Below are positions 1,093 through 7,703 of a stretch of 7,703 nucleotides of DNA, piece after piece. Within the stretch, counting starts at the first letter, position 1; each line of letters opens with the position of its first letter. Position numbers and translations under genes: made by a program. A model generated the notes under the pieces. The model did not search any database. It was not told the DNA's origin and was given only the letters and a program-made list of their open reading frames with translations. The DNA lies in NCBI GenBank assembly GCA_029012525.1, contig JAQXMG010000046.1, positions 1-7,703 of the forward strand, given 5' to 3'. The stretch comes from a bacterium (GTDB lineage: Bacteria > Bacillota_I > Bacilli_A > RF39 > UBA660).

Positions 1093-2955
1093 ATGAAAAA
1101 TTTAAAAGATAATATAAGAAATAAATATATAGTAGCATCACTATTTGTAATAGGACTTATATTAATGGTAATTGGAGTATCATATGCCATGTATACATTT
1201 ACAGGTACAGGTACAACAGAAAACGTAATAACAACAGGACAAATAACCGTAGCATTTGCAGAACAAAATAATATCTTAATACAAAATAGATATCCAGAAA
1301 CAGATGCAGTAGGACTAGCAAGTACAGATCCTAATAGTCAAATGACATTTACAGTATCAAGTAATATTTCAGGAGATGCAACAGTAAATTATGCAATAGG
1401 TTTAACTGATATAGTTGAAGGAGCAACATTAAAACAAGACCATATAAAAATTTACTTAACAAAAAATGGAAGTGTTGCAAATGACTTTACAGAAAATAAA
1501 GGAAAGACAATTAAAAGTATATCAAGATATAGTATAACAAACTATCTAGATAGCCATGTAATAGCACAAGGGTCTGTAACTGGTACTCAAACTGATACAT
1601 ATACATTAAAAGCATGGATAGATGAAAACTATGATTTACCAACAACAGATACATCAAGTGGTAACGTACATAGTAATACAACAACAACTGAAACATTTAG
1701 TTTTAAATTAAAAGCAATAGGTTCAGATGATGTATTAGTATTTGTAAAACCAGAAGTATTAGTATGTGATGAAATGCCAGAAGAAACAACAAGTGCAAAT
1801 GTACCAAGTTTAGCAAAAAATATGATACCAGTATGCTATAATAGTACAAAAAATGTATGGTTAAAAGCAGATAGTACAAATACAGATTCAGATTATAGAT
1901 GGTATTCATATAGTGGAAAGTCTTGGGCTAATGCAGTAACAGTAAGTGAAACAAATAGAGAAACATATTTAGATGCAGAGGTTGGAACAGTAATTCCAAT
2001 GGAAGTAATAAACACAATGTTAGTATGGATACCAAGATTTAGTGCAACAGGTGATACAGCAAATTATAATGGAGGAACAATAGATAGTCCTGGAGCATTT
2101 AATATAACATTTGTAAATAAAGATACAGCGGCACATGATGCTTTTGCATTTGGAACAGATTCATTATCAGGATTTTGGATAGGAAAATTTGAAAATTCAA
2201 GTAATGTATCATGTGAACCAGCAAGTAGTTCTGACGTAGGAGCAGGATGCAATCTAACATCAATAAGACCAAAAGTATTACCAAATGCAACAATTTGGAG
2301 AGGAGCAAATGTATCAACATTCTTTGGTGATATTCAAAAAATGGCTGATAGTGGAAACCAATATGGATTTGATAAAACAATTGATACAACCCTAGATACC
2401 CATATGTTAAAAAATAATGAATGGGGTGCAGTAGCATACCTAACACAAAGTATCTATGGTAGATGTAGTTCATTAACAAGTTGCAGTGAAGTAGGAATAA
2501 ATAATAATTCAAGTTATATAACAGGATATGGAGCACCTGCTGGAAGTGCATCTACTGTAACAAATGGAGCATATAATACAGACTTAGGAAAAGATGCATC
2601 GACAACAGGAAATATTTATGGTGTATATGATATGAGTGGTGGAGCATATGAATACGTAATGGGTAATTACAATAATACAGCAGATGGTTCTCAATTTACA
2701 ACATTACCAAATACAAAATATTATAATGTATATACAACAGAAAGTGCATATACAACAGCAGGATTACAACATGCGTTAACGGAGACGAAAAAATGGTATG
2801 GCGATTCCGCGTACTTCGTTAATTCTAACCGTCCGTGGGTCCTTCGTGGAGGCAACGATAGTAATCCTGGCCTTGCAGGTGTTTTCTACTTCCACGCCTC
2901 CGGTGGCCGCAGCGATCCGTATTGTGGTTCTCGTCTTTCAGTCACAATTAACTAA
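1093..2955 (+). CDS. DGR target (variable) protein: N-terminal signal-anchor, beta-rich middle region, C-terminal FGE-sulfatase/C-type-lectin-like domain ending in the VR
   Basis: AGAGGAG (1075-1081) lies 11 nt before the ATG at 1093. The N-terminus MKNLKDNIRNKYIVASLFVIGLILMVIGVSYAMYTF has a basic stretch followed by a hydrophobic helix. The C-terminal half carries FGE/CLec-type blocks GFWIGKFE, NEWGAVAYL, GVYDMSGGAYEYVMGNY and WVLRGG...GSRLSV. The ORF-track start at 853 is only a stop-free read-through of the upstream remnant. Confidence 0.85.
   Translation: MKNLKDNIRNKYIVASLFVIGLILMVIGVSYAMYTFTGTGTTENVITTGQITVAFAEQNNILIQNRYPETDAVGLASTDPNSQMTFTVSSNISGDATVNYAIGLTDIVEGATLKQDHIKIYLTKNGSVANDFTENKGKTIKSISRYSITNYLDSHVIAQGSVTGTQTDTYTLKAWIDENYDLPTTDTSSGNVHSNTTTTETFSFKLKAIGSDDVLVFVKPEVLVCDEMPEETTSANVPSLAKNMIPVCYNSTKNVWLKADSTNTDSDYRWYSYSGKSWANAVTVSETNRETYLDAEVGTVIPMEVINTMLVWIPRFSATGDTANYNGGTIDSPGAFNITFVNKDTAAHDAFAFGTDSLSGFWIGKFENSSNVSCEPASSSDVGAGCNLTSIRPKVLPNATIWRGANVSTFFGDIQKMADSGNQYGFDKTIDTTLDTHMLKNNEWGAVAYLTQSIYGRCSSLTSCSEVGINNNSSYITGYGAPAGSASTVTNGAYNTDLGKDASTTGNIYGVYDMSGGAYEYVMGNYNNTADGSQFTTLPNTKYYNVYTTESAYTTAGLQHALTETKKWYGDSAYFVNSNRPWVLRGGNDSNPGLAGVFYFHASGGRSDPYCGSRLSVTIN
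2800..2944 (+). repeat. DGR variable region (VR), the last ~48 codons of the target gene
   Basis: It aligns without gaps to 3777-3921 (offset +977). Across 2801-2944 there are 25 mismatches, 22 of them where the TR base is A (9 A>C, 7 A>G, 6 A>T). By hand count the VR is 54% GC, against ~41% for the TR and roughly 25% for the window. An invariant 20-bp 3' block (2925-2944) could serve as an IMH-like element. Confidence 0.9.
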
Positions 2956-2983
2956 TTGTTAAATTTATTTAACAATTAGTTAA
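2948..2983. promoter_or_regulatory. Perfect inverted repeat (hairpin/cruciform) 3 nt downstream of the VR; candidate DGR target-recognition element
   Basis: TTAACTAATTGTTAAAT (2948-2964) is the exact reverse complement of ATTTAACAATTAGTTAA (2967-2983), with a 2-nt centre. It overlaps the TAA stop (2953-2955). No equivalent repeat follows the TR. Confidence 0.7.
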
Positions 2984-3056
2984 AGTCCTAAAAAACCCAC
3001 TAATACGAAGAAAGGAAATAAATTATTTTAAAGTAATATAAGAAATAGGAAGAAAC

Positions 3057-3094
3057 TTTTCCATATTTCAAACTGGATTTTGAAATATGGAAAA
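3057..3094. repeat. 16-bp perfect inverted repeat (stem-loop) in the target-gene 3' region
   Basis: TTTTCCATATTTCAAA (3057-3072) pairs with TTTGAAATATGGAAAA (3079-3094), with the loop CTGGAT. Confidence 0.6.
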
Positions 3095-3129
3095 AGAAGA
3101 TTAAAGAAAAAATAAAAGAGGTAGGTAGT

Positions 3130-3171
3130 CCCAGCAAAATTAAACTGATTTTAATTTTGCTGGGGTTTTTT
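3130..3171 (+). terminator. Rho-independent terminator of the target gene
   Basis: The stem is CCCAGCAAAATTAAA (3130-3144) paired with TTTAATTTTGCTGGG (3150-3164), with the loop CTGAT. It is followed by G and TTTTTT (3166-3171). Confidence 0.8.
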
Positions 3172-3264
3172 GTATATTTGTAAAATATAAAGTCATAAAT
3201 ATTTTAAAGTCAAAAAGTCATATTTATTATGCAATTTTTGTTATTAAATTTTTAGTTAAACTCG

Positions 3265-3301
3265 TTGACGTGTGTGTGTGTGTGTGTATGTGTATTATAC
3301 T
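3265..3301 (+). promoter_or_regulatory. Candidate promoter for the MutS-I-like/TR/avd/RT transcription unit; its spacer is the (GT)9 tract
   Basis: The -35-like TTGACG is at 3265-3270. The -10-like hexamers are TATTAT (3293-3298, spacer 22 nt) and TATACT (3296-3301, spacer 25 nt). The site lies between the terminator (3171) and the RBS/ATG at 3310/3326. Confidence 0.35.
3270..3287. repeat. (GT)9 dinucleotide microsatellite, followed by the degenerate ATGTGT
   Basis: GTGTGTGTGTGTGTGTGT can be read directly at 3270-3287. It is compositionally anomalous in this AT-rich window. Confidence 0.95.
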
Positions 3302-3325
3302 ATTTACATAGGAAGTGAATAGTAT

Positions 3326-3739
3326 ATGATAAAGTTAAGTGATTATGTTAAAGAAGTAATTGATAAAAATATTGATAAAGTCGTAATGGTAAAGTATGGT
3401 AATTTTTATAGATGCTCTTATAATGATGCATTAATTATGTCATATTTATTTAATTATAAAATTACAAATAGAAATACTGTTGGTTTTCCAATTAATACAC
3501 TAAATAATGTTTTAGATAAATTAAAAGATAATAAGATAAGCTGTGTAGTAGTATATGAAATAAATAATGTAATAAGTTATGTTATTATAGATAATAAATA
3601 TATGGAAGTATTAGATAAAGCAATAAAATATGATAATGTGAAAGAGGCAGTAAAAGTAATTAGTGAATTATCTTATGAAATATTAAATAGAGATATTAGA
3701 AAATTACATAAAATAATGTTATTTTTAAGAAATTTATAA
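3326..3739 (+). CDS. Small DGR accessory protein resembling MutS N-terminal mismatch-binding domain I (MutS-like, 137 aa)
   Basis: The RBS AGGAAGTGA (3310-3318) lies before the ATG at 3326. KVVMVKYGNFYRCSYNDALIMSYLFNYKITNRNTVGFPINTLNNVLDKLKDNKISCVVV parallels E. coli MutS [33 protein letters not shown]...[25 protein letters not shown]. Conserved blocks are G-F-Y, Y-DA, (L/I)T-R, G(I/F)P and the hydrophobic strand. The comparison was made from memory. Confidence 0.6.
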   Translation: MIKLSDYVKEVIDKNIDKVVMVKYGNFYRCSYNDALIMSYLFNYKITNRNTVGFPINTLNNVLDKLKDNKISCVVVYEINNVISYVIIDNKYMEVLDKAIKYDNVKEAVKVISELSYEILNRDIRKLHKIMLFLRNL

Positions 3740-3776
3740 TGGTATCAACTTTAGTTGGTATAGGGATAAAGCTACA

Positions 3777-3921
3777 AGTGATAACGCGAACTTCGTTAAT
3801 TCTAACAATCCGTGGTTCCTTCGTGGAGGCAACTATAGTAATACTGGCAATGCAGGTGTTTTCAACTTCAACAACAACAATGGCAACAGCAATACGAATT
3901 ATGGTTCTCGTCTTTCAGTCA
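3777..3921 (+). ncRNA. DGR template repeat (TR), the non-coding RNA template for mutagenic cDNA
   Basis: It is homologous to VR 2800-2944. Read in the VR-equivalent frame (pos mod 3 = 0) it gives DNANFVNSNNPWFLRGGNYSNTGNAGVFNFNNNNGNSNTNYGSRLSVST* with 16 AAY (Asn) codons. It contains 43 adenines, of which 22 differ in the VR. Confidence 0.9.
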
Positions 3922-4097
3922 GTACTTAGTAAAATTGTTATACAAGACTGATGTAAATAGTTTAAGGACTATTAAAGGTTATTATAAGTACAAGTTTTAT
4001 TCCTTATCTTACAAAGATAAAATAAATTACTATGATAGTTTTAGGTGAGTAATGTTTTTTATGAAAATTCTAAAACTATTAAGAAGGAGAATTAATT

Positions 4098-4439
4098 ATG
4101 TTAAATAATTTAATAATATATAAGGTACATCTTGATTTAATGGAATATGCATATAAATTACTTGTTAAGTATCCAAAATATGAAAAAAACGGAATAGTAA
4201 GTGAAATAAAAGAAAATCTATATGATATATTAAAAAATATTATTTATTATAATAATAAAAAGAATAAAATTTCATTAAATAATATATTAATTGATTTAAA
4301 TATGCTTTTAGTATTAATTAGAATATCATATAAAATGAAATATATAACTAATAAAAACTATATGGCATTTGCAAGAAAAATAAATAACATAAGTAAACTA
4401 TGTCATGGATTAATAAATAGTGTTAACAATCAAAAATAG
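4098..4439 (+). CDS. avd: Avd (accessory variability determinant), four-helix-bundle protein
   Basis: The RBS AAGGAG (4084-4089) lies before the ATG at 4098. The protein is 113 aa and basic. The pattern ...YKLLVKYPKYEKNGIVSEIKENLYDIL...IDLNMLLVLIRISYKMKYITNKNYMAFARKINNISKLCHGLI matches the Avd / 23S-rRNA-IVS four-helix-bundle family. It sits immediately upstream of the RT and overlaps it. Confidence 0.8.
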   Translation: MLNNLIIYKVHLDLMEYAYKLLVKYPKYEKNGIVSEIKENLYDILKNIIYYNNKKNKISLNNILIDLNMLLVLIRISYKMKYITNKNYMAFARKINNISKLCHGLINSVNNQK

Positions 4440-5442
4440 TTTTTATAGTAATATTACATTTGATAAGTTTTTAAAAGCATATTATAAATCAATTAAGGGT
4501 AAAGGTTTAAAATGTGAAATACTTGAATTTTATTATAATTTAGAAAATAATTTAATTACATTAGTGGATGAAATAAGTTCTTTTAAATATAAAAGTAGTC
4601 CATATAGAGAATTTATTATATATGAACCAAAGATGCGAATTATAAGAAGTTTACCATTTAGAGATAGAGTAGTAGAAACATGGTATGTAGAAAATATAAT
4701 AAAACCATATTTTGTACCAAGATTTATTTATGATAATTATGCATGTTTAGAAAATAAAGGGACACATAAAGCAGTAAAAAGACTTCAACATTTTATGAGA
4801 AGTATGAGGGAGAAATATGGAAAATATTATGTTGTTAAGTTTGATATAAGACATTTTTTTGATAGTATAGATAAAGATATATTATTTAGTATATTAAAAA
4901 GATATATAACTGATAAATATGTATTATTATTTACATATAATATAATTTATAGTAATAATAAATGCGGGTTACCTATTGGAAATTACTCAAGTCAGTACTT
5001 CGCAAATATTTATATGAATGAATTAGATCATTATATAAAGGATGTTCTTCATAAAGCGTGCTACGCACGTTTTATGGATGATTTTGTCGTTTTGGTTGAA
5101 AATAAAGTAGAAGCGAGAGAATTTTTTGATTTAGTAGAAATATTTGTAAATAATAAACTTAATTTAGGACTTAATAAAAAGAGTTGTTATTATCCAAGTA
5201 GGTTAGGAATTGACTTTTGTGGATATATTATTCATGAAGATTATATACTTGTTAGAAAAAGATGTATTAAAAAGATAAAAGGAAAAATAAAAGTATGGAA
5301 TAAATTATATGATAAAGGTGTTCTTGATAATAAAAAGTTTATTTTATCTTTTAATTCATTTTTAGGACATATAAGTCATGCGAATACTTATAATTTAAAA
5401 TGTAAAGTTATTAGTGAAATTGATTATTTAAATATAAAATAA
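4420..5442 (+). CDS. DGR-type reverse transcriptase
   Basis: The GTG at 4420 is the first possible start after the in-frame TAA at 4414-4416, and it overlaps avd by 20 nt. RT motifs are present: IIYEPKMRIIRSLPFRDRVV (motifs 1-2), VKFDIRHFFDSI (motif 3), LPIGNYSSQYFANIYMNELDH (the DGR-diagnostic IGxxxSQ motif 4) and ARFMDDFVVL (the YxDD catalytic box). The 340-aa length is typical of a DGR RT. No intron maturase or endonuclease domains are present. Confidence 0.93.
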   Translation: MLTIKNSFYSNITFDKFLKAYYKSIKGKGLKCEILEFYYNLENNLITLVDEISSFKYKSSPYREFIIYEPKMRIIRSLPFRDRVVETWYVENIIKPYFVPRFIYDNYACLENKGTHKAVKRLQHFMRSMREKYGKYYVVKFDIRHFFDSIDKDILFSILKRYITDKYVLLFTYNIIYSNNKCGLPIGNYSSQYFANIYMNELDHYIKDVLHKACYARFMDDFVVLVENKVEAREFFDLVEIFVNNKLNLGLNKKSCYYPSRLGIDFCGYIIHEDYILVRKRCIKKIKGKIKVWNKLYDKGVLDNKKFILSFNSFLGHISHANTYNLKCKVISEIDYLNIK

Positions 5443-5520: not shown

Positions 5521-5563
5521 TTTTTTTCGAAAAAATTTCGATTTTTTTTCGATTTTTTTTCGA
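5521..5563. repeat. Four TCGA cores spaced exactly 11 bp apart and separated by T/A tracts; the first lies in the palindrome TTTTTTCGAAAAAA
   Basis: TCGA occurs at 5527-5530, 5538-5541, 5549-5552 and 5560-5563. The intervening runs are mostly T7-8. Confidence 0.7.
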
Positions 5564-5567
5564 CTTG

Positions 5568-5677
5568 CAATTTGCTTTGTCAAGTGTTATATTTGGTATA
5601 GTAGTGCTAATTATTGTAAAATGGCAATATTGTTATAGTATACTTAAGAAATTTGGTGATTTTTGCTAAATTTTTTT
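5568..5677 (+). repeat. Direct repeat copy A (~110 bp), upstream of the Fic gene; contains two TGnTATAGT extended -10-like motifs and a hairpin followed by a T-run
   Basis: It aligns to 6601-6709 with about 8 differences in ~110 positions. TGGTATAGT is at 5594-5602 and TGTTATAGT at 5631-5639. The stem is AAATTTGG (5649-5656) paired with CTAAATTT (5666-5673), followed by a T-run to 5679. Confidence 0.8.
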
Positions 5678-5747
5678 TTGGTAAAATTAAACAATATAAG
5701 ATGTTTTATGATATAATTCATATATATAAAGTTTAGGAGGTATCAAT

Positions 5748-6560
5748 ATGGATGATATTACTTATGATAAAGTTGTTGATGAAAAAAATTCTAAAATAAA
5801 ACAGTTATATTGGAATATAGCATTTGGATTACAAGAAGTTGATGGTTTAAAACCTTCAAAATATATGGTGCAGTTATCAAAAGAACATATTGAAGGTAAA
5901 AAAACATATAAACAAGTACAAGATGAAATTACATCATATTATGTCAAAAATTCAAATAATTATGATGATGACGAAGAAGAAGCAGATGAAGTATCAACTG
6001 CTATTTATGAAATATTAAGTGATGGTGCATTTCGTTTTGATTATTTAACTTATAAAAATTATCATAAAAGATTATTTAAATATTTAAGCAATGAAAAGTA
6101 TGATGCTGGAAATTTTAGGACTTACAATTTTACTAAAGATGAACCAGTATTAAATGGGGATAGTGTAGATTATCAATCTTATGATTTAATTGAAGAAACT
6201 TTAAAGTATGATTTTTCTGAAGAAAAAGAAGTTGATTATATTAATATGAATAAAGAGCAAATAGTTGATCGAATATCAGAATTTACATCAAGGATTTGGC
6301 AAATTCATCCATTTAGGGAAGGAAATACTAGAACAACTGCAGTATTTATTCAAAAATATTTGTTAAGTATGGGATTTAAAGTTAATAATGATTTATTTAA
6401 AGATAATTCACTATATTTTAGAAATGCTTTAGTTAGAGCAAATTATACAAATTATGTTATAGGTGTAAGGGCTGACAAAATTTATTTAAATAAGTTTTTT
6501 GAAAATTTGTTATTAAATAAAAAGAATAAATTGGATAATGATGATTTAAGGATTAATTAA
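5748..6560 (+). CDS. Fic-family protein with a VbhA-like N-terminal domain and a non-canonical active-site motif
   Basis: The RBS AGGAGG (5735-5740) lies before the ATG at 5748. The Fic core is IHPFREGNTRTTAVF, against the consensus HxFx(D/E)GNGRxxR. The N-terminal NIAFGLQEVDGLKPSKYMVQLSKEHIEGKKTYKQVQDEI parallels VbhA NALASQRLEGLEPDPQVVAQMERVVVGELETSDVIKDL. The C-terminal block is YFRNALVRANY. Confidence 0.8.
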   Translation: MDDITYDKVVDEKNSKIKQLYWNIAFGLQEVDGLKPSKYMVQLSKEHIEGKKTYKQVQDEITSYYVKNSNNYDDDEEEADEVSTAIYEILSDGAFRFDYLTYKNYHKRLFKYLSNEKYDAGNFRTYNFTKDEPVLNGDSVDYQSYDLIEETLKYDFSEEKEVDYINMNKEQIVDRISEFTSRIWQIHPFREGNTRTTAVFIQKYLLSMGFKVNNDLFKDNSLYFRNALVRANYTNYVIGVRADKIYLNKFFENLLLNKKNKLDNDDLRIN

Positions 6561-6600
6561 TATAATAAATTTATTATTTTTTTCCTATTTTTTCACCTTT

Positions 6601-6709
6601 CAATTTGTTTTGTCAAGTGTTATATTTGGCATAGTAGTGCTAATTATTGTAAAACGCTAATATTGTTATAGTATATTTAAGAAATTTGGTATTTTTGCCA
6701 AATTTTTTT
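6601..6709 (+). repeat. Direct repeat copy B, downstream of the Fic gene; followed by an RBS and only a 4-codon ORF
   Basis: It is ~93% identical to 5568-5677. The hairpin is AAATTTGG (6682-6689) paired with CCAAATTT (6698-6705), followed by a T-run to 6709. AGGAGG (6730-6735) then precedes ATG TAT AAG ATA TAA (6743-6757). Confidence 0.8.
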
Positions 6710-6802
6710 GTTTGTTTAAAATAAAGGTTAGGAGGTTAAAAAATGTATAAGATATAAAATTATTGTTTTTGGCAGCATTTTTGTAATACAATTATCTATT
6801 TT

Positions 6803-7058: not shown

Positions 7059-7232
7059 ATGAATAAAGAAGATTTAGTATTTTATCAAGTTAGAATTAAT
7101 AAAAAATTATTAAAAATTTTTAAAGAAATAATTAAAAAAACTAAAATGTCACAACAAGATTTTTTTGATAGTGCTATAAAAGAATTTATTGTTAAAAATA
7201 TTGATGTTGTTGCAAAAATTGAAGATAAATAA
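7059..7232 (+). CDS. Small ribbon-helix-helix (CopG/Arc-like) DNA-binding protein, 57 aa; not in the supplied ORF track
   Basis: The RBS AGGAAAGGAG (7042-7051) lies 7 nt before the ATG at 7059, and the stop is TAA at 7230-7232. The translation is MNKEDLVFYQVRINKKLLKIFKEIIKKTKMSQQDFFDSAIKEFIVKNIDVVAKIEDK. It fits the RHH pattern of an N-terminal beta-strand (VFYQVRI), helix A, then helix B (SQQDFFDSAIKEFI). Confidence 0.6.
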   Translation: MNKEDLVFYQVRINKKLLKIFKEIIKKTKMSQQDFFDSAIKEFIVKNIDVVAKIEDK

Positions 7233-7308: not shown

Positions 7309-7485
7309 ATGGATAAGTATAAAATAAATTTTATTTTTAATAATGAAAAAGATATAAATGATATCTTAATAAATGTTTTAAATAAAGAATTAAAAAAATA
7401 TGTTCAGATGATTTGTAAAAATTATAAAAGAGAGGTAACATCATCATGTACTTATTTATATCTAGAAGGAGGTAAGAATTGTTAG
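7309..7485 (+). CDS. Small hypothetical protein (58 aa) translationally coupled to the recombinase gene
   Basis: GTGAGG (7297-7302) lies 6 nt before the ATG at 7309, which I prefer over the track's GTG at 7297. The TAG stop at 7483-7485 overlaps the recombinase start. I recognise no family. Confidence 0.4.
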   Translation: MDKYKINFIFNNEKDINDILINVLNKELKKYVQMICKNYKREVTSSCTYLYLEGGKNC

Positions 7486-7703
7486 AGAGTATAAATAAGA
7501 TATATAATGTTGGTATTTATATAAGATTATCTCGTGAAGATGATGATAAAGTAATGATGAGCGAGAGTATTACAAATCAAAAGAGTTTATTACTTCAATA
7601 TGTAAAAGAAAATAATTTAAGAGTTTATGATATTTATATTGATGATGGATATAGCGGAACTAATTTTGATAGACCTGATTTCAATAGGTTATTAAATGAT
7701 ATT
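7479..7703 (+). CDS. Large serine recombinase (resolvase/invertase catalytic domain), N-terminal fragment running off the window
   Basis: The strong RBS AAGGAGG (7466-7472) lies 6 nt before the TTG at 7479. The translation LLESINKIYNVGIYIRLSREDDDKVMMSESITNQKSLLLQYVKENNLRVYDIYIDDGYSGTNFDRPDFNRLLNDI carries the serine-recombinase signature Y-x-R-x-S (catalytic Ser in IRLSRED), the Q block, and D-G-x-SG-x-x-x-x-RP. The frame is open to base 7703. Confidence 0.85.
   Translation, partial: MLESINKIYNVGIYIRLSREDDDKVMMSESITNQKSLLLQYVKENNLRVYDIYIDDGYSGTNFDRPDFNRLLNDI

Follow-up and report, generated by a model that had tools for sequence, protein, structure and literature searches.

A predicted diversity-generating retroelement with a MutS-like accessory gene in an uncultured, very AT-rich gut bacterium

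Introduction

The prototype diversity-generating retroelement (DGR) is that of BPP-1, ordered mtd-avd-TR-brt, where information flows in an adenine-specific manner from a template repeat (TR) to a variable repeat (VR) that occupies the 3′-terminal part of its target gene. Other cassettes carry a MutS-like (MSL) gene. These have been termed Architecture D, which includes the Legionella DGR (Wu et al., 2018, PMC5758913), and Msl is also present in the Bfr, Bth and Bun DGRs of Bacteroides (bioRxiv 10.1101/2024.11.15.621889). Wu et al. (2018) give about 15% of DGRs as having more than one target in the cassette. The DGRs of Legionella and Treponema diversify surface proteins or lipoproteins.

We have analyzed a stretch of 7,703 nucleotides (the window), which covers the host-genome sequence around the element to 7.7 kb. 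The host is an uncultured, very AT-rich gut bacterium. A complete DGR had been proposed here from the sequence alone (the original prediction), and its adenine-specific TR/VR pair, Avd, DGR-clade reverse transcriptase (RT) and MutS-like ORF were each borne out by an independent test. Judged from sequence, the window very probably holds a complete DGR that would diversify the C-terminal 40-odd residues of a predicted secreted or membrane-anchored surface protein. It is a well-supported further case of a known DGR type and not a novel type, because an MSL gene, remote targets and varied gene orders have already been published (Wu et al., 2018).

All components lie on the + strand in the order target-MSL-TR-avd-RT. 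As in BPP-1 there is adenine-specific TR-to-VR flow, with the VR at the 3′ end of the target. Unlike BPP-1 there is an extra MSL gene, and in this order the spacer RNA separates TR from avd, where in BPP-1 it separates TR from RT. The original prediction had stressed this departure from BPP-1. The difference in order holds, but an order that includes a MutS-like gene is no new departure, given Architecture D and the Bacteroides DGRs.

Results

Adenine-Specific Differences between the Repeats

2800-2944, + strand: VR, the last 48 codons but three of the target gene, matching 3777-3921 without gaps
3777-3921, + strand: TR, non-coding donor with 44 adenines and 16 AAY codons in the VR frame

Ungapped alignment of VR and TR gives 26 differences, of which 23 fall at TR adenines, although A makes up only 44 of the 145 bases (hypergeometric P = 9.6e-12). 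An even spread over the four TR bases was looked for and is contradicted, the count being 23 A against 3 T. The earlier tally of 25 differences between 2801-2944 and 3778-3921, comprising 22 at TR-A (A>C 9, A>G 7, A>T 6) and 3 at TR-T, with one further A>G at 2800/3777, was reproduced exactly. Recounting also returned the 43 adenines in 144 nt (44 in 145 nt), 22 of them differing in the VR, and the 16 AAY codons. TR adenines are distributed 21/19/3 over codon positions 1/2/3 of the VR frame, and changes at A alone cannot reach a stop codon from any TR codon, as had been claimed. From 41 mutable adenines the reachable diversity would be about 10^24.7 variants at the DNA level and about 10^23 at the protein level, all free of stop codons. 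The VR is indeed a GC island, at 54% compared with 24.4% for the whole window.

The pair was found independently by a repeat finder (family D2). The 5′ edge of the repeat is soft; homology in the window is solid from 2803/3780, and extends about 9 nt further upstream in close relatives. Beyond 2944/3921 VR and TR fully diverge.

[quoted passage not shown]

2925-2944, + strand: TGGTTCTCGTCTTTCAGTCA, the IMH-like 3′ terminus of the VR, which has the same sequence as TR positions 3902-3921
2948-2983, + strand: perfect 16-bp inverted repeat with 4-nt loop TTTA, 3 nt past the VR and overlapping the target stop codon
3127-3167, + strand: intrinsic terminator, 18-bp stem then T-run, closing the target-gene transcription unit
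3264-3299, + strand: TTGACG-(GT)n-TATTATACT stretch, 27 nt 5′ of the MSL start, with the GT tract at 3270-3293

Within the IMH-like end A3917 and A3921 are constant in 6/6 VR alleles, and the last variable TR adenine is 3901. The inverted repeat folds as DNA with −13.7 kcal/mol (z = −5.1; 0/200 shuffles equally good). It is found 3′ of VRs and is missing 3′ of the TR; it is kept after 3/3 paralogous VRs, and is not obvious in more distant relatives. We regard it as a candidate target-recognition hairpin or cruciform. BPP-1 likewise has an invariant end and a VR-only downstream inverted repeat, but its stem is short and GC-rich whereas that found here is AT-rich. A second difference is that in the window IMH and IMH* share one 20-nt sequence, so that donor and recipient can be distinguished only downstream of them. 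The recipient may be marked by the invariant 20-nt end together with the hairpin.

The terminator is also present in L024 and L038. Gene order, strand and terminator suggest that a transcript beginning 3′ of it would span MSL, TR, avd and RT. The 3264-3299 stretch is a possible promoter, read from sequence, whose hexamer spacing would be set by the GT tract. This tract has 12 copies (TRF) and is length-polymorphic. TTGACG and TATTAT are separated by 22 nt in the window and by 20 nt in two contigs of 99.7-99.8% identity (L043, L044); in L024-type contigs the spacing is also 20 nt, and uninterrupted. A consensus promoter scan offers 3203-3230 and 3303-3330 as alternative candidates.

Avd and the Reverse Transcriptase

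4098-4439, + strand: avd (accessory variability determinant), 113 aa, pI 9.7
4420-5442, + strand: DGR RT, 340 aa, GTG start overlapping the avd stop, Pfam RVT_1 match

The prediction of an Avd-like ORF beside a DGR-type RT with a diagnostic motif and FMDD box is confirmed. The avd product matches Pfam bAvd with E 3.2e-15 (57 bits against a cut-off of 40, above the gathering score) and the PHROG family 'Avd protein of DGR' with E 6.4e-19; the match to NCBIfam DivGenRetAVD (E 4.3e-15) is under that model's cut-off. The RT contains GLPIGNYSSQYFANIY and FMDD, and matches PHROG 1423 with E 2e-100. Its best match in the PDB is Bordetella bRT (8ub7; E 6.8e-45, 158 bits, residues 12-326). By alignment K28, F65, R73, I75, D142, I186, G187, Q192, D220 and D221 correspond to bRT K29, F66, R74, I76, D138, I181, G182, Q187, D215 and D216, and these ten residues are invariant in 12 clade members. 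The locus thus resembles BPP-1 in full-length RT homology, in its catalytic and template- and dNTP-contacting residues, and in having an Avd partner.

Could the RT instead be part of a different retroelement or of a defence system (group II intron, retron, Abi/UG/DRT) that merely adjoins the repeat? Its top NCBIfam match is group_II_RT_mat, at 100 bits far under the 300-bit cut-off, many PADLOC DRT and retron models match with E 1e-12 to 1e-25, and there is no DGR-RT model among the NCBIfam or PADLOC matches listed. We looked for clustering with such RTs, yet in the search that gave bRT 158 bits the group II intron, retron and defence (Drt) enzymes reached at most 57 bits (E 1e-14 for group II intron and retron). 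The protein has neither a maturase nor an endonuclease extension, avd overlaps its start, and a scan of the window with Rfam detects neither a group II intron nor a retron RNA. Moreover, homologous RTs occur at at least 20 loci, each beside an A-biased TR/VR pair. An origin in another system is thus extremely improbable, and we treat the enzyme as a DGR RT.

Structure of the DGR RNA

3763-3773, + strand: 5′ strand of a long-range duplex, GGGAUAAAGCU, pairing 11/11 with 3993-4003 and bracketing the TR
3922-3928, + strand: candidate P0 5′ strand GUACUUA, directly after the last TR/VR-homologous base, pairing with 3985-3991 (read from sequence)
3956-3973, + strand: P1 hairpin 3′ of the TR, with a stem of 5 bp here and 7 bp in relatives, 8-nt conserved loop UUUAAGGA at 3961-3968
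3985-4003, + strand: P0 3′ strand UAAGUAC (3985-3991), unpaired A (3992) and duplex 3′ strand AGUUUUAUUCC (3993-4003)

Covariation shows that the TR-containing RNA folds with the long-range duplex bracketing the TR and P1 in the downstream spacer. Across 12 lineages 97% of cells in the duplex are paired, with compensatory changes in 8/11 pairs. In nine relatives with an independently mapped TR start, the counterpart of its 5′ strand lies between a 1-nt overlap with that start and 34 nt upstream. For P1, 14 distinct sequences show changes on both sides in 7/7 pairs; 92% of cells are paired compared with 41-46% when the partner is slid, and the covariation score is 0.98 compared with 0.14-0.22. 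P0-like complementary pairs of other sequence occur in L003/L006 (TATGGTATA/TATACCATA), L012/L013 (CTTTTATATA/TATATAAAAG) and L001 (CTATGATA/TATCATAG), and also in L004/L010.

The order of elements in the spacer matches that of the Bordetella DGR RNA map (Handa et al., 2024), and BPP-1 also has a structured TR RNA with an upstream-downstream duplex and a spacer stem-loop. We infer that A3992 might be the priming nucleotide. By homology with Bordetella, including the conserved contacts to template and incoming nucleotide, an RT-Avd complex would bind the TR RNA, copy the TR from its 3′ end and misincorporate opposite adenines.

Variation among Strains and Remote Targets

The original prediction had proposed a population test, in which VR heterogeneity should lie at TR adenines. 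Six VR alleles from related contigs are variable at 41/45 TR-A positions compared with 11/97 other positions. Scored against the TR, 127/268 cells differ at TR-A (47%) and 11/581 elsewhere (1.9%). The TR is nearly invariant among strains that are about 6% divergent overall, with internal changes at two positions; the strain differences are CCTT versus CAAT at 3819-3820, plus the 5′ edge, and nothing else. The substitution pattern and allele diversity are consistent with a homing step in which A-mutagenized cDNA would replace VR 2800-2924.

VRs matching the TR are also found in paralogues elsewhere. That of P0002 (L036/L037, beside gyrA and ezrA) has 18/18 mismatches at TR-A, and that of P0005 (L038-L040) has 22/25. 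The contigs come from the same metagenomes as cassette contigs and have the same 25% GC; they belong to strains about 94% identical to the window and not to the window's own assembly. Co-occurrence and sequence match, rather than one assembled genome, suggest that remote targets and cassette share a genome. Since the same TR matches the VRs of two unlinked paralogues in close strains, the element would work in trans on several targets. This resembles multi-target DGRs, with one TR and several paralogous targets (predicted surface proteins), where every target has a VR allele, an IMH-like end and a hairpin of its own. Unlike the situation in multi-target cassettes, the extra targets are unlinked, on other contigs among housekeeping genes.

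These comparisons bear on the idea that 3777-3921 is simply a segmental duplication, a decaying non-coding copy of the gene 3′ end drifting toward A and T, with the RT unrelated. In so AT-rich a genome a neutral copy would lose G and C, and the downstream copy has the lower GC content (41%). However, drift predicts about equal A and T, contrary to the observed bias and to the six A>T differences. It is also the supposed decaying copy that is conserved across strains and the coding copy that varies, and this rules out an ordinary duplication. The unlinked paralogues show the same A-specific pattern against the same template, covarying helices flank the copy, and Avd and a DGR-clade RT adjoin it. 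The probability of such an origin is negligible.

Is the DGR still active, or is it a fossil with recognisable parts that no longer diversifies in this lineage, its VR differences being relics of past activity? One VR allele is common to contigs from four different metagenomes (L023, L024, L034, L035), and turnover is thus not fast everywhere. Three VR/TR differences in the window are at TR-T, in L024-type contigs the VR lacks 3 nt that are present in its own TR, one TR codon has changed from AAT to CTT with loss of a diversifiable site, and the spacing of the hexamers upstream of MSL is non-optimal. Further, the catalytic box is FMDD where the majority of clade members have YMDD. Against this, active RTs such as that of LINE-1 (FADD) can have Phe as the first residue of the YxDD box. 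Non-A differences and VR/TR indels are both documented for accepted DGRs. The four ORFs and the RNA helices are all intact, and there is full conservation of the catalytic and template-contacting residues. L041 and L042 encode an MSL protein identical to that of the window, yet their VRs differ from its VR at many TR-A positions, indicating that homing was recent relative to the background divergence of about 5%. We therefore consider loss of activity unlikely, and favor a DGR that still diversifies its target.

The Target Protein and the Cellular Context

1093-2955, + strand: target (variable protein) gene, 620 aa, ATG at 1093 after the ribosome-binding site GAGAGGAG

A hydrophobic helix, anchor or signal, lies at the N-terminus of the target protein; its N-terminal domains are rich in beta structure, and the VR falls in its C-terminal region. 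In the AF2 model residues 11-34 form a helix, residues 45-310 form beta domains predicted with confidence, and the C-terminal half has pLDDT <50. The nearest homologue, P0001, has 621 aa. There are more than 3776 homologues, none with a precomputed Pfam domain, sharing the hypervariable C-terminus WYxDxAxFVxSxxPWFxRGG..AGVFxF..GSRLSVTIN. Variable proteins of the FGE-sulfatase/C-type-lectin fold, such as Treponema denticola TvpA, similarly have a C-terminal VR and a scaffold W..RGG...G.F.F....GSR/GFR with Asn-coded variable positions between. There are also weak Pfam FGE-sulfatase matches (E 0.018 for the target; 10/43 homologues, best E 9e-4), all of them below threshold. As the model of the C-terminal half is unreliable, membership of this fold is unproven and the fold of the VR domain is unconfirmed. 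Separately, the N-terminal part weakly resembles camelysin/TasA-type domains.

A DGR might instead be carried by a phage for tropism switching, in the manner of BPP-1, rather than diversify a cellular surface protein. IMG/VR contains near-identical contigs, the gene for a large serine recombinase begins at 7479, and Fic and toxin-antitoxin-like genes surround the cassette. Yet no phage structural genes are called in the 14 kb around the cassette in L034/L035, and there is no match among 50,697 phage records. The target has its N-terminal membrane or signal helix, paralogues with matching VRs lie among gyrA, ezrA, transketolase and ribosomal protein genes, and the nearest RT relatives are on bacterial MAG contigs, not viral contigs. 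The context thus looks cellular, unlike that of BPP-1, and a phage-borne element is quite unlikely. A further difference from BPP-1 is that the target bears no sequence relation to Mtd.

The MutS-Like Protein

3326-3739, + strand: MSL gene, 137 aa, MutS domain I with a long helix behind it at the C-terminus

The MutS-like ORF named in the original prediction matches Pfam MutS_I with E 3.9e-7 (30.7 bits against a cut-off of 20.6, above the gathering score). Its AF2 model has pLDDT 79, and the best 50 Foldseek matches in the PDB are all of the MutS family, with listed alignments of 66-96 columns; the best has E 8.2e-4 and rmsd 1.7 Å over 71 columns. Of the MutS domains the protein has domain I, and the ATPase and clamp domains are absent. 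Its GNFYRC aligns with MutS GDFYEL, so that the mismatch-wedging Phe is kept and the Glu is not; the Phe is kept in 127/128 homologues.

Genes of the MSL family adjoin related DGRs in L001, L006, L012 and L019, their position and strand vary among members of this RT clade, and P0174 and P0246 are RT-MSL fusion proteins. In Bacteroides ovatus, deletion of host MutS raises retrohoming about 5- to 10-fold (bioRxiv 10.1101/2024.11.15.621889). MSL most likely binds the mismatch-dense cDNA:VR heteroduplex, which would shield it from reversion by host mismatch repair.

Like other MSL-containing DGRs (Wu et al., 2018; Bacteroides), the cassette combines a small protein of MutS domain I only with avd, and lacks HRDC. 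Here MSL lies between target and TR, in a 24% GC uncultured Bacillota-like MAG. Its 137 aa fall inside the reported range of 112-283 aa, whereas with a pI of 9.1 it lies toward the top of the reported values (7.2 ± 1.7).

An adenine-specific donor and recipient

We have compared the VR (2800-2944), which comprises codons 570-617 of the 620-codon target gene (1093-2955, forward strand), with the TR (3777-3921). A base-by-base recount gave an alignment free of gaps. The 144 positions from 2801 to 2944 contain 25 differences, 22 lying at TR adenines (A>C 9, A>G 7, A>T 6) and three at TR thymines, and there is one further A>G at position 2800/3777. In total 23 of the 26 differences fall on TR adenines, which number 44 in the 145 positions (hypergeometric P = 9.6e-12). 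Read in the frame of the target gene, the TR contains 16 AAY codons. The original prediction had given the same 25 differences with 22 at A, and the same 16 AAY codons, so that every number was reproduced. The TR adenines are distributed 21/19/3 over codon positions 1/2/3 of the VR frame, and none of the codons reaches a stop by adenine-only changes. The GC content is 54% in the VR, 41% in the TR and 24.4% in the window. A 70-amino acid ORF lies over the TR (3739-3951) in a frame that differs from that of the VR, and the TR is a non-coding donor. This ORF was rejected as a gene; it contains a 1-nt indel in contigs of the type of L024, a close relative.

Four contigs from IMG/VR and JGI (L023, L024, L034 and L035) are ~94% identical to the window over the full length. 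Comparing the window with L024, the TR has two internal differences, at 3819-3820 (CCTT vs CAAT), and the VR has dozens of differing positions. Adenine-biased differences were also found for five further VR alleles. When six alleles were pooled (window, L024, L036, L038, L041 and L042), 41 of 45 TR-adenine positions were variable, and 11 of the 97 remaining positions; counted by cell, 47% were changed at TR-A positions vs 1.9% elsewhere, in what is a between-sample comparison. Heterogeneity of the VR at TR adenines in related populations had been anticipated in the original prediction, and in these six alleles, compared between samples, the variation is concentrated at TR-A with a near-constant TR. 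The downstream copy might instead be a pseudocopy drifting to AT, but this is excluded because the copy that is conserved across strains is the non-coding one. One VR allele is common to four contigs from four different metagenomes, which disfavors a very high current activity.

Paralogues of the target carry VRs of the same kind. P0002 (84% identical to the target) adjoins gyrA, ylbD/E and ezrA, and P0005 (78% identical) has transketolase and ribosomal protein genes in its vicinity. Their contigs have a GC content of 25%, like the cassette contigs, and come from the same JGI metagenomes. Against the L024-type TR, all 18 mismatches in the C-terminal VR of P0002 are at TR adenines, as are 22 of the 25 in that of P0005. 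A further paralogue, P0010, is 58% identical and is found in the window's own MAG. VRs served by the window TR can be sought with the pattern TCTCGTCTTTCAGTYACAATTAACTAATT. Scans of metagenome contigs for the exact VR 3′ flank and for a TR/VR pattern in which the A sites were set to N gave no match, and the VR 3′ flank and TR/VR patterns in viral contigs returned no contig beyond two already known.

Some irregularities were observed on comparison with L024. The TR change at 3819-3820 (L024 4485-4486) converts a diversifiable Asn codon into a fixed Leu codon, and the CCTT form is also present in several VR alleles. A change of two adjacent adenines is of the kind that DGR mutagenesis makes, and this, together with the occurrence of CCTT in VR alleles, could mean that a VR converted the TR, or that the TR was itself a target of homing. 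Relative to its TR, the L024-type VR lacks 3 nt (L024 ~3570-3580, equivalent to window 2907-2909), an in-frame deletion of one codon opposite an AAC-rich stretch; similar VR/TR irregularities have been illustrated for other DGRs (Wu et al., 2018; PMC5758913). The divergence of the window from L024 is a mosaic. The target-gene part (1900-2800) differs by 12-23 per 100 nt, and the MSL protein (mosaic region 3400-3740) is 76% identical, with 33 non-synonymous vs 16 synonymous codon changes. Avd shows 100% and the RT 97.6% identity to L024, with hardly any difference in the intergenic regions.

The 3′ end of the VR

The last variable adenine of the TR is 3901. The final 20 nt, TGGTTCTCGTCTTTCAGTCA, are the same in the TR and in all the VRs, including two adenines that are never changed, and beyond this end the flanks of TR and VR are unrelated. 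In these alignments the 20-nt end behaves as an IMH (the element at the VR 3′ end that bounds mutagenesis) that is identical to its TR counterpart IMH*. DGRs in which IMH and IMH* are the same have been mentioned by Wu et al. (2018; PMC5758913). Two elements follow the VR:

2948-2983, forward strand: inverted repeat, perfect 16 bp with a 4-nt loop (DNA fold z = -5.1)
3127-3167, forward strand: true terminator, downstream of the 2948-2983 hairpin

The inverted repeat begins 3 nt past the VR and overlaps the stop codon of the target. The hairpin is found after every VR of three paralogues and not after the TR. More distant relatives show no obvious counterpart. In a minority of DGRs, inverted repeats follow the IMH and not the IMH*. 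Those of Bordetella and Legionella are GC-rich, whereas that of the window is AT-rich. The 150-230 nt 3′ of the target stop (window 2956-3126; L036 7933-8085; L038 7909-8140) are conserved at 92-99% among the three paralogues vs 89-92% for the coding sequence; for L036 alone the values are 98-99% vs 89-92%. Since the conservation of this stretch is paralogue-wide, the hairpin may be conserved for its function, or else because the paralogues were recently duplicated or underwent gene conversion. The conserved stretch contains a second hairpin, at 3056-3095.

Conserved helices in the DGR RNA

Two helices around the TR covary when its flanks are compared with those at the loci of related RTs:

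3956-3973, forward strand: P1 hairpin, with a conserved 8-nt loop UUUAAGGA and covariation
3763-3773 with 3993-4003, forward strand: long-range duplex, in which GGGAUAAAGCU, 3 nt 5′ of the TR, pairs with AGUUUUAUUCC downstream

In P1, both-sided changes occur in all seven pairs across 14 distinct sequences. The cells are paired in 92% of cases vs 41-46% with the partner slid, and the covariation score was reached by none of 500 shuffles. The long-range duplex has 11/11 or 10/11 of its upstream complement in nine loci with an independently mapped TR start, where the position of the upstream strand ranges from an overlap of 1 nt with the TR start to 34 nt upstream; in a few loci this strand was itself found by complementarity. 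Overall 97% of cells pair, with compensatory changes in 8 of the 11 pairs (12 lineages). The same types of element, a duplex bracketing the TR and a spacer stem-loop, are found in the Bordetella DGR RNA. In the Bordetella RNP, sequences flanking the TR on its two sides form a duplex and the spacer contains stem-loops, and such RNA elements have been predicted in 207 of 278 Avd-containing DGRs (Handa et al., 2024).

A further complementarity, P0, is a sequence observation only. GUACUUA (3922-3928), immediately after the last homologous base, is complementary to UAAGUAC (3985-3991), and the 3′ strand is directly followed by the unpaired A3992. By position, and by analogy with the Bordetella system, P0 and A3992 would correspond to the template:primer duplex and the priming adenosine. 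P0-like complementary pairs of other sequence were seen in relatives by inspection; a shuffle test of duplex energy is underpowered in such AT-rich sequence.

Other pairings did not survive comparison. A pseudoknot between the loop and downstream sequence (AAGGA/UCCUU) was dropped, being unsupported in the loci L003, L009 and L010; in the sequences compared, pairing with GGGA 5′ of the TR, as part of the long-range duplex, accounts better for the UUCC motif. The pairing of TCAGTC (3915-3920) with GACTGA (3946-3951) in the MFE fold is not conserved in relatives. As a probe of viral contigs the spacer RNA motif TTTAAGGA..AAG..WTTCCYT was noisy, with an RT homologue in two of the 120 matches listed, neither of them in the expected position.

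The RT and Avd

The RT (4420-5442, forward strand) has 340 amino acids. [quoted passage not shown] It contains the motifs PIGNYSSQ and FMDD, the first residue of the latter being F here and Y in most clade members. The bRT residues K29, F66, R74, I76, I181, G182 and Q187, for which contacts to the template base, the 5′ phosphate and the incoming nucleotide have been described (Handa et al., 2024), correspond to K28, F65, R73, I75, I186, G187 and Q192, and the catalytic D138, D215 and D216 correspond to D142, D220 and D221. All ten of these aligned residues are invariant in twelve RTs of the clade. NCBIfam and PADLOC returned no DGR-RT model for this protein, and their matches (group II, DRT and retron) were all sub-threshold. 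A search of all Rfam families with E up to 1, including intron and retron RNA, found no match in the window.

Related RTs, 41-54% identical, come from MAGs of gut Bacilli and Clostridia. Their loci are mostly arranged target-TR-avd-RT, and each has an A-biased TR/VR pair. An RT-profile scan of viral contigs gave relatives of no more than 38% identity, bar two near-identical contigs already known, and these distant relatives were found without the spacer RNA motif. Because the viral-contig relatives are distant and lack the motif, the sequences place the RT clade mainly in bacterial MAGs.

Avd is present in about 74% of DGRs. The ORF at 4098-4439 (forward strand) matches Pfam bAvd with 57 bits (cut-off 40) and the PHROG family "Avd protein of DGR" with E = 6.4e-19; its score against the NCBIfam equivalog is under the cut-off. 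A phmmer search of the PDB gave spurious coiled-coil matches only, which were set aside. The original prediction of an Avd-like ORF followed by a DGR-type RT is thus borne out, by the Pfam and PHROG matches for the one, and for the other by bRT as far the best match, with motifs and contact residues retained. The pI of this Avd is 9.7, and values of 9.5 ± 0.7 have been reported in DGRs (Wu et al., 2018; PMC5758913).

A stand-alone MutS domain I

The ORF at 3326-3739 (forward strand) had been described as MutS-like, and we can now be more specific. Its 137-amino acid product (PUC23_02490), here termed MSL, scores 30.7 bits against Pfam MutS_I (threshold 20.6). An AF2 model (pLDDT 79) was compared with the PDB using Foldseek, and all of the best 50 matches belong to the MutS family. 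The alignments listed cover 66-96 columns, the best rmsd being 1.7 Å over 71 columns, and for the model this span is consistent with domain I only. The domain is followed by a long C-terminal helix in the model. The proteins of four ENA and Logan contigs (L041-L044) are identical to that of the window.

The MSL segment GNFYRC aligns with the mismatch-recognition segment GDFYEL of MutS, keeping the wedge Phe and replacing the Glu by Arg. In an alignment of 129 homologues, obtained by a profile search of the whole library, 127 of 128 have the Phe, and at the Glu position R, N, H, K and E all occur. The search returned 672 cluster representatives, almost all of 110-150 amino acids. A functional MutS was considered and rejected, since the connector, core, clamp and ABC ATPase domains are absent and the Glu is not conserved; judged by its domain content, MSL is not a repair-competent MutS.

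The family was named MSL by Wu et al. (2018; PMC5758913), who defined an "Architecture D", and Msl has been noted in three Bacteroides DGRs (bioRxiv 10.1101/2024.11.15.621889). The protein of the window is likewise small, a stand-alone MutS domain I encoded in a cassette with avd and without HRDC; no HRDC match was found among the window ORFs scanned. Two DGR-type RTs, P0174 (489 amino acids) and P0246 (507 amino acids), with the motifs GLPIGNxxSQ and YMDD, carry an MSL domain at the C terminus, and these natural fusions, which join the function of MSL to the RT in one polypeptide, independently tie the family to DGR RTs. MutS_I-domain ORFs also adjoin related cassettes, at L001 2491-2892, L006 1131-1475, L012 7755-7994 (reverse strand) and L019 9319-9498 (reverse strand). 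In L001 the ORF is placed between the TR and avd, and in L012 and L019 it is on the opposite strand. These varied placements indicate that MSL is a recurrent accessory of the RT clade that is positionally free.

A length-polymorphic tract upstream of MSL

The intergenic region preceding MSL contains one further element:

3270-3293, forward strand: (GT)n tract, between TTGACG and TATTAT/TATACT hexamers, 27 nt 5′ of the MSL start

Its length changes by one GT unit from the window to contigs of 99.7-99.8% identity. The tract also occurs in L041, L043, L044 and L024, and it is uninterrupted in L024-type contigs. The hexamer spacings seen are 20-22 nt, all non-optimal. Given the strong terminator upstream, the intergenic region would be the sole entry for transcription of MSL-TR-avd-RT, and the tract may act as a slipped-strand switch for the DGR operon at a putative promoter. 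The fuller proposal, in which slippage switches MSL-TR-avd-RT to give phase-variable hypermutation while MSL acts as a decoy that shields the heteroduplex from MutS, we regard as improbable; if it were true, hypermutation of a surface protein would itself be phase-variable.

The target protein

The target has an N-terminal hydrophobic helix, and AF2 predicts confident β domains over residues 45-310; the pLDDT of the C-terminal half is below 50, which makes the model unreliable there. Foldseek matches to the C-terminal part (Pgp3 and adhesins, TM ~0.1) were discarded as meaningless. A C-type-lectin/FGE fold would be expected for the C-terminal domain that bears the VR; Pfam FGE-sulfatase matched with E = 0.018, below threshold, and weakly in 10 of 43 homologues. 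Neither the target nor its family profile matched PDB sequences. More than 3,776 family members were found in the search, from MAGs of gut Bacilli and Clostridia, none with a precomputed Pfam domain. Those inspected share a C-terminal scaffold and are variable where the window TR encodes Asn. Across the family the C termini have the look of DGR diversification. This suggests a widespread class of DGR target in these MAGs; such variable surface proteins would form a major class, as yet without a name, in these uncultured bacteria.

A complete and probably recently active DGR

To our knowledge, DGRs are the only natural systems of targeted hypermutation in prokaryotes, and they are being adapted for directed evolution. 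We are highly confident that the window contains a complete DGR. The sequence comparisons establish a donor and recipient that differ specifically at adenines, with varied alleles, a stable template and several recipients; they also reveal an intact Avd and DGR-type RT, a structured TR RNA and a hairpin that follows VRs but not the TR. The element has very probably been active recently. It is of known type, with Avd and MSL, cellular, and with several targets.

By homology, a complex of RT and Avd would bind the folded TR RNA and prime on it. The TR would be copied with misincorporation opposite A, and the cDNA would replace the VR upstream of the IMH-like end. More tentatively, transcription of MSL-TR-avd-RT may start in the 3170-3325 intergenic region, and MSL may bind the mismatch-rich heteroduplex and protect it from host MutS. 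In Bacteroides ovatus, retrohoming goes up 5- to 10-fold when host MutS is lost (bioRxiv 10.1101/2024.11.15.621889).

The window DGR introduces no new principle, yet as an example it is unusually clean, compact and well delimited, with all its parts within 4.4 kb. It offers a readable TR, natural VR alleles, targets in trans, helices defined by covariation and an MSL gene. The putative co-transcription of MSL with the TR, together with the length-polymorphic (GT)n tract, makes it a possible test bed for the role of MSL and for DGR regulation, and these two leads bear on both DGR regulation and mismatch repair.

Surroundings of the cassette

Just 3′ of the RT there is an 11-nt tandem repeat, TTTCGATTTTT, with 2.5 copies at 5536-5563 and about three more in L024. 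A direct repeat of 152 nt, 82% identical, occurs at 5531-5682 and 6564-6715. The first copy lies ahead of the Fic gene at 5748, the second ahead of no more than a 4-codon ORF at 6743; the pair resembles a promoter or leader region that was duplicated. The Fic protein (5748-6560) matches the PADLOC candidate PDC-S72 with E = 3e-84. The window also contains the 3′ end of another Fic gene (1-267), a small ORF of RHH-like type at 7059-7232 and, at 7479-7703, the first part of a large serine recombinase gene; in relatives a SocA_Panacea gene lies near the cassette. By gene content the surroundings resemble a mobile or defence island. Phage and plasmid collections gave no megablast match to the window as a whole. 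The stretch 334-874, which separates the Fic fragment from the target gene, contains short ORFs in shifting frames; four small genes are called there in L034 and L035, and the stretch looks like a decayed gene.
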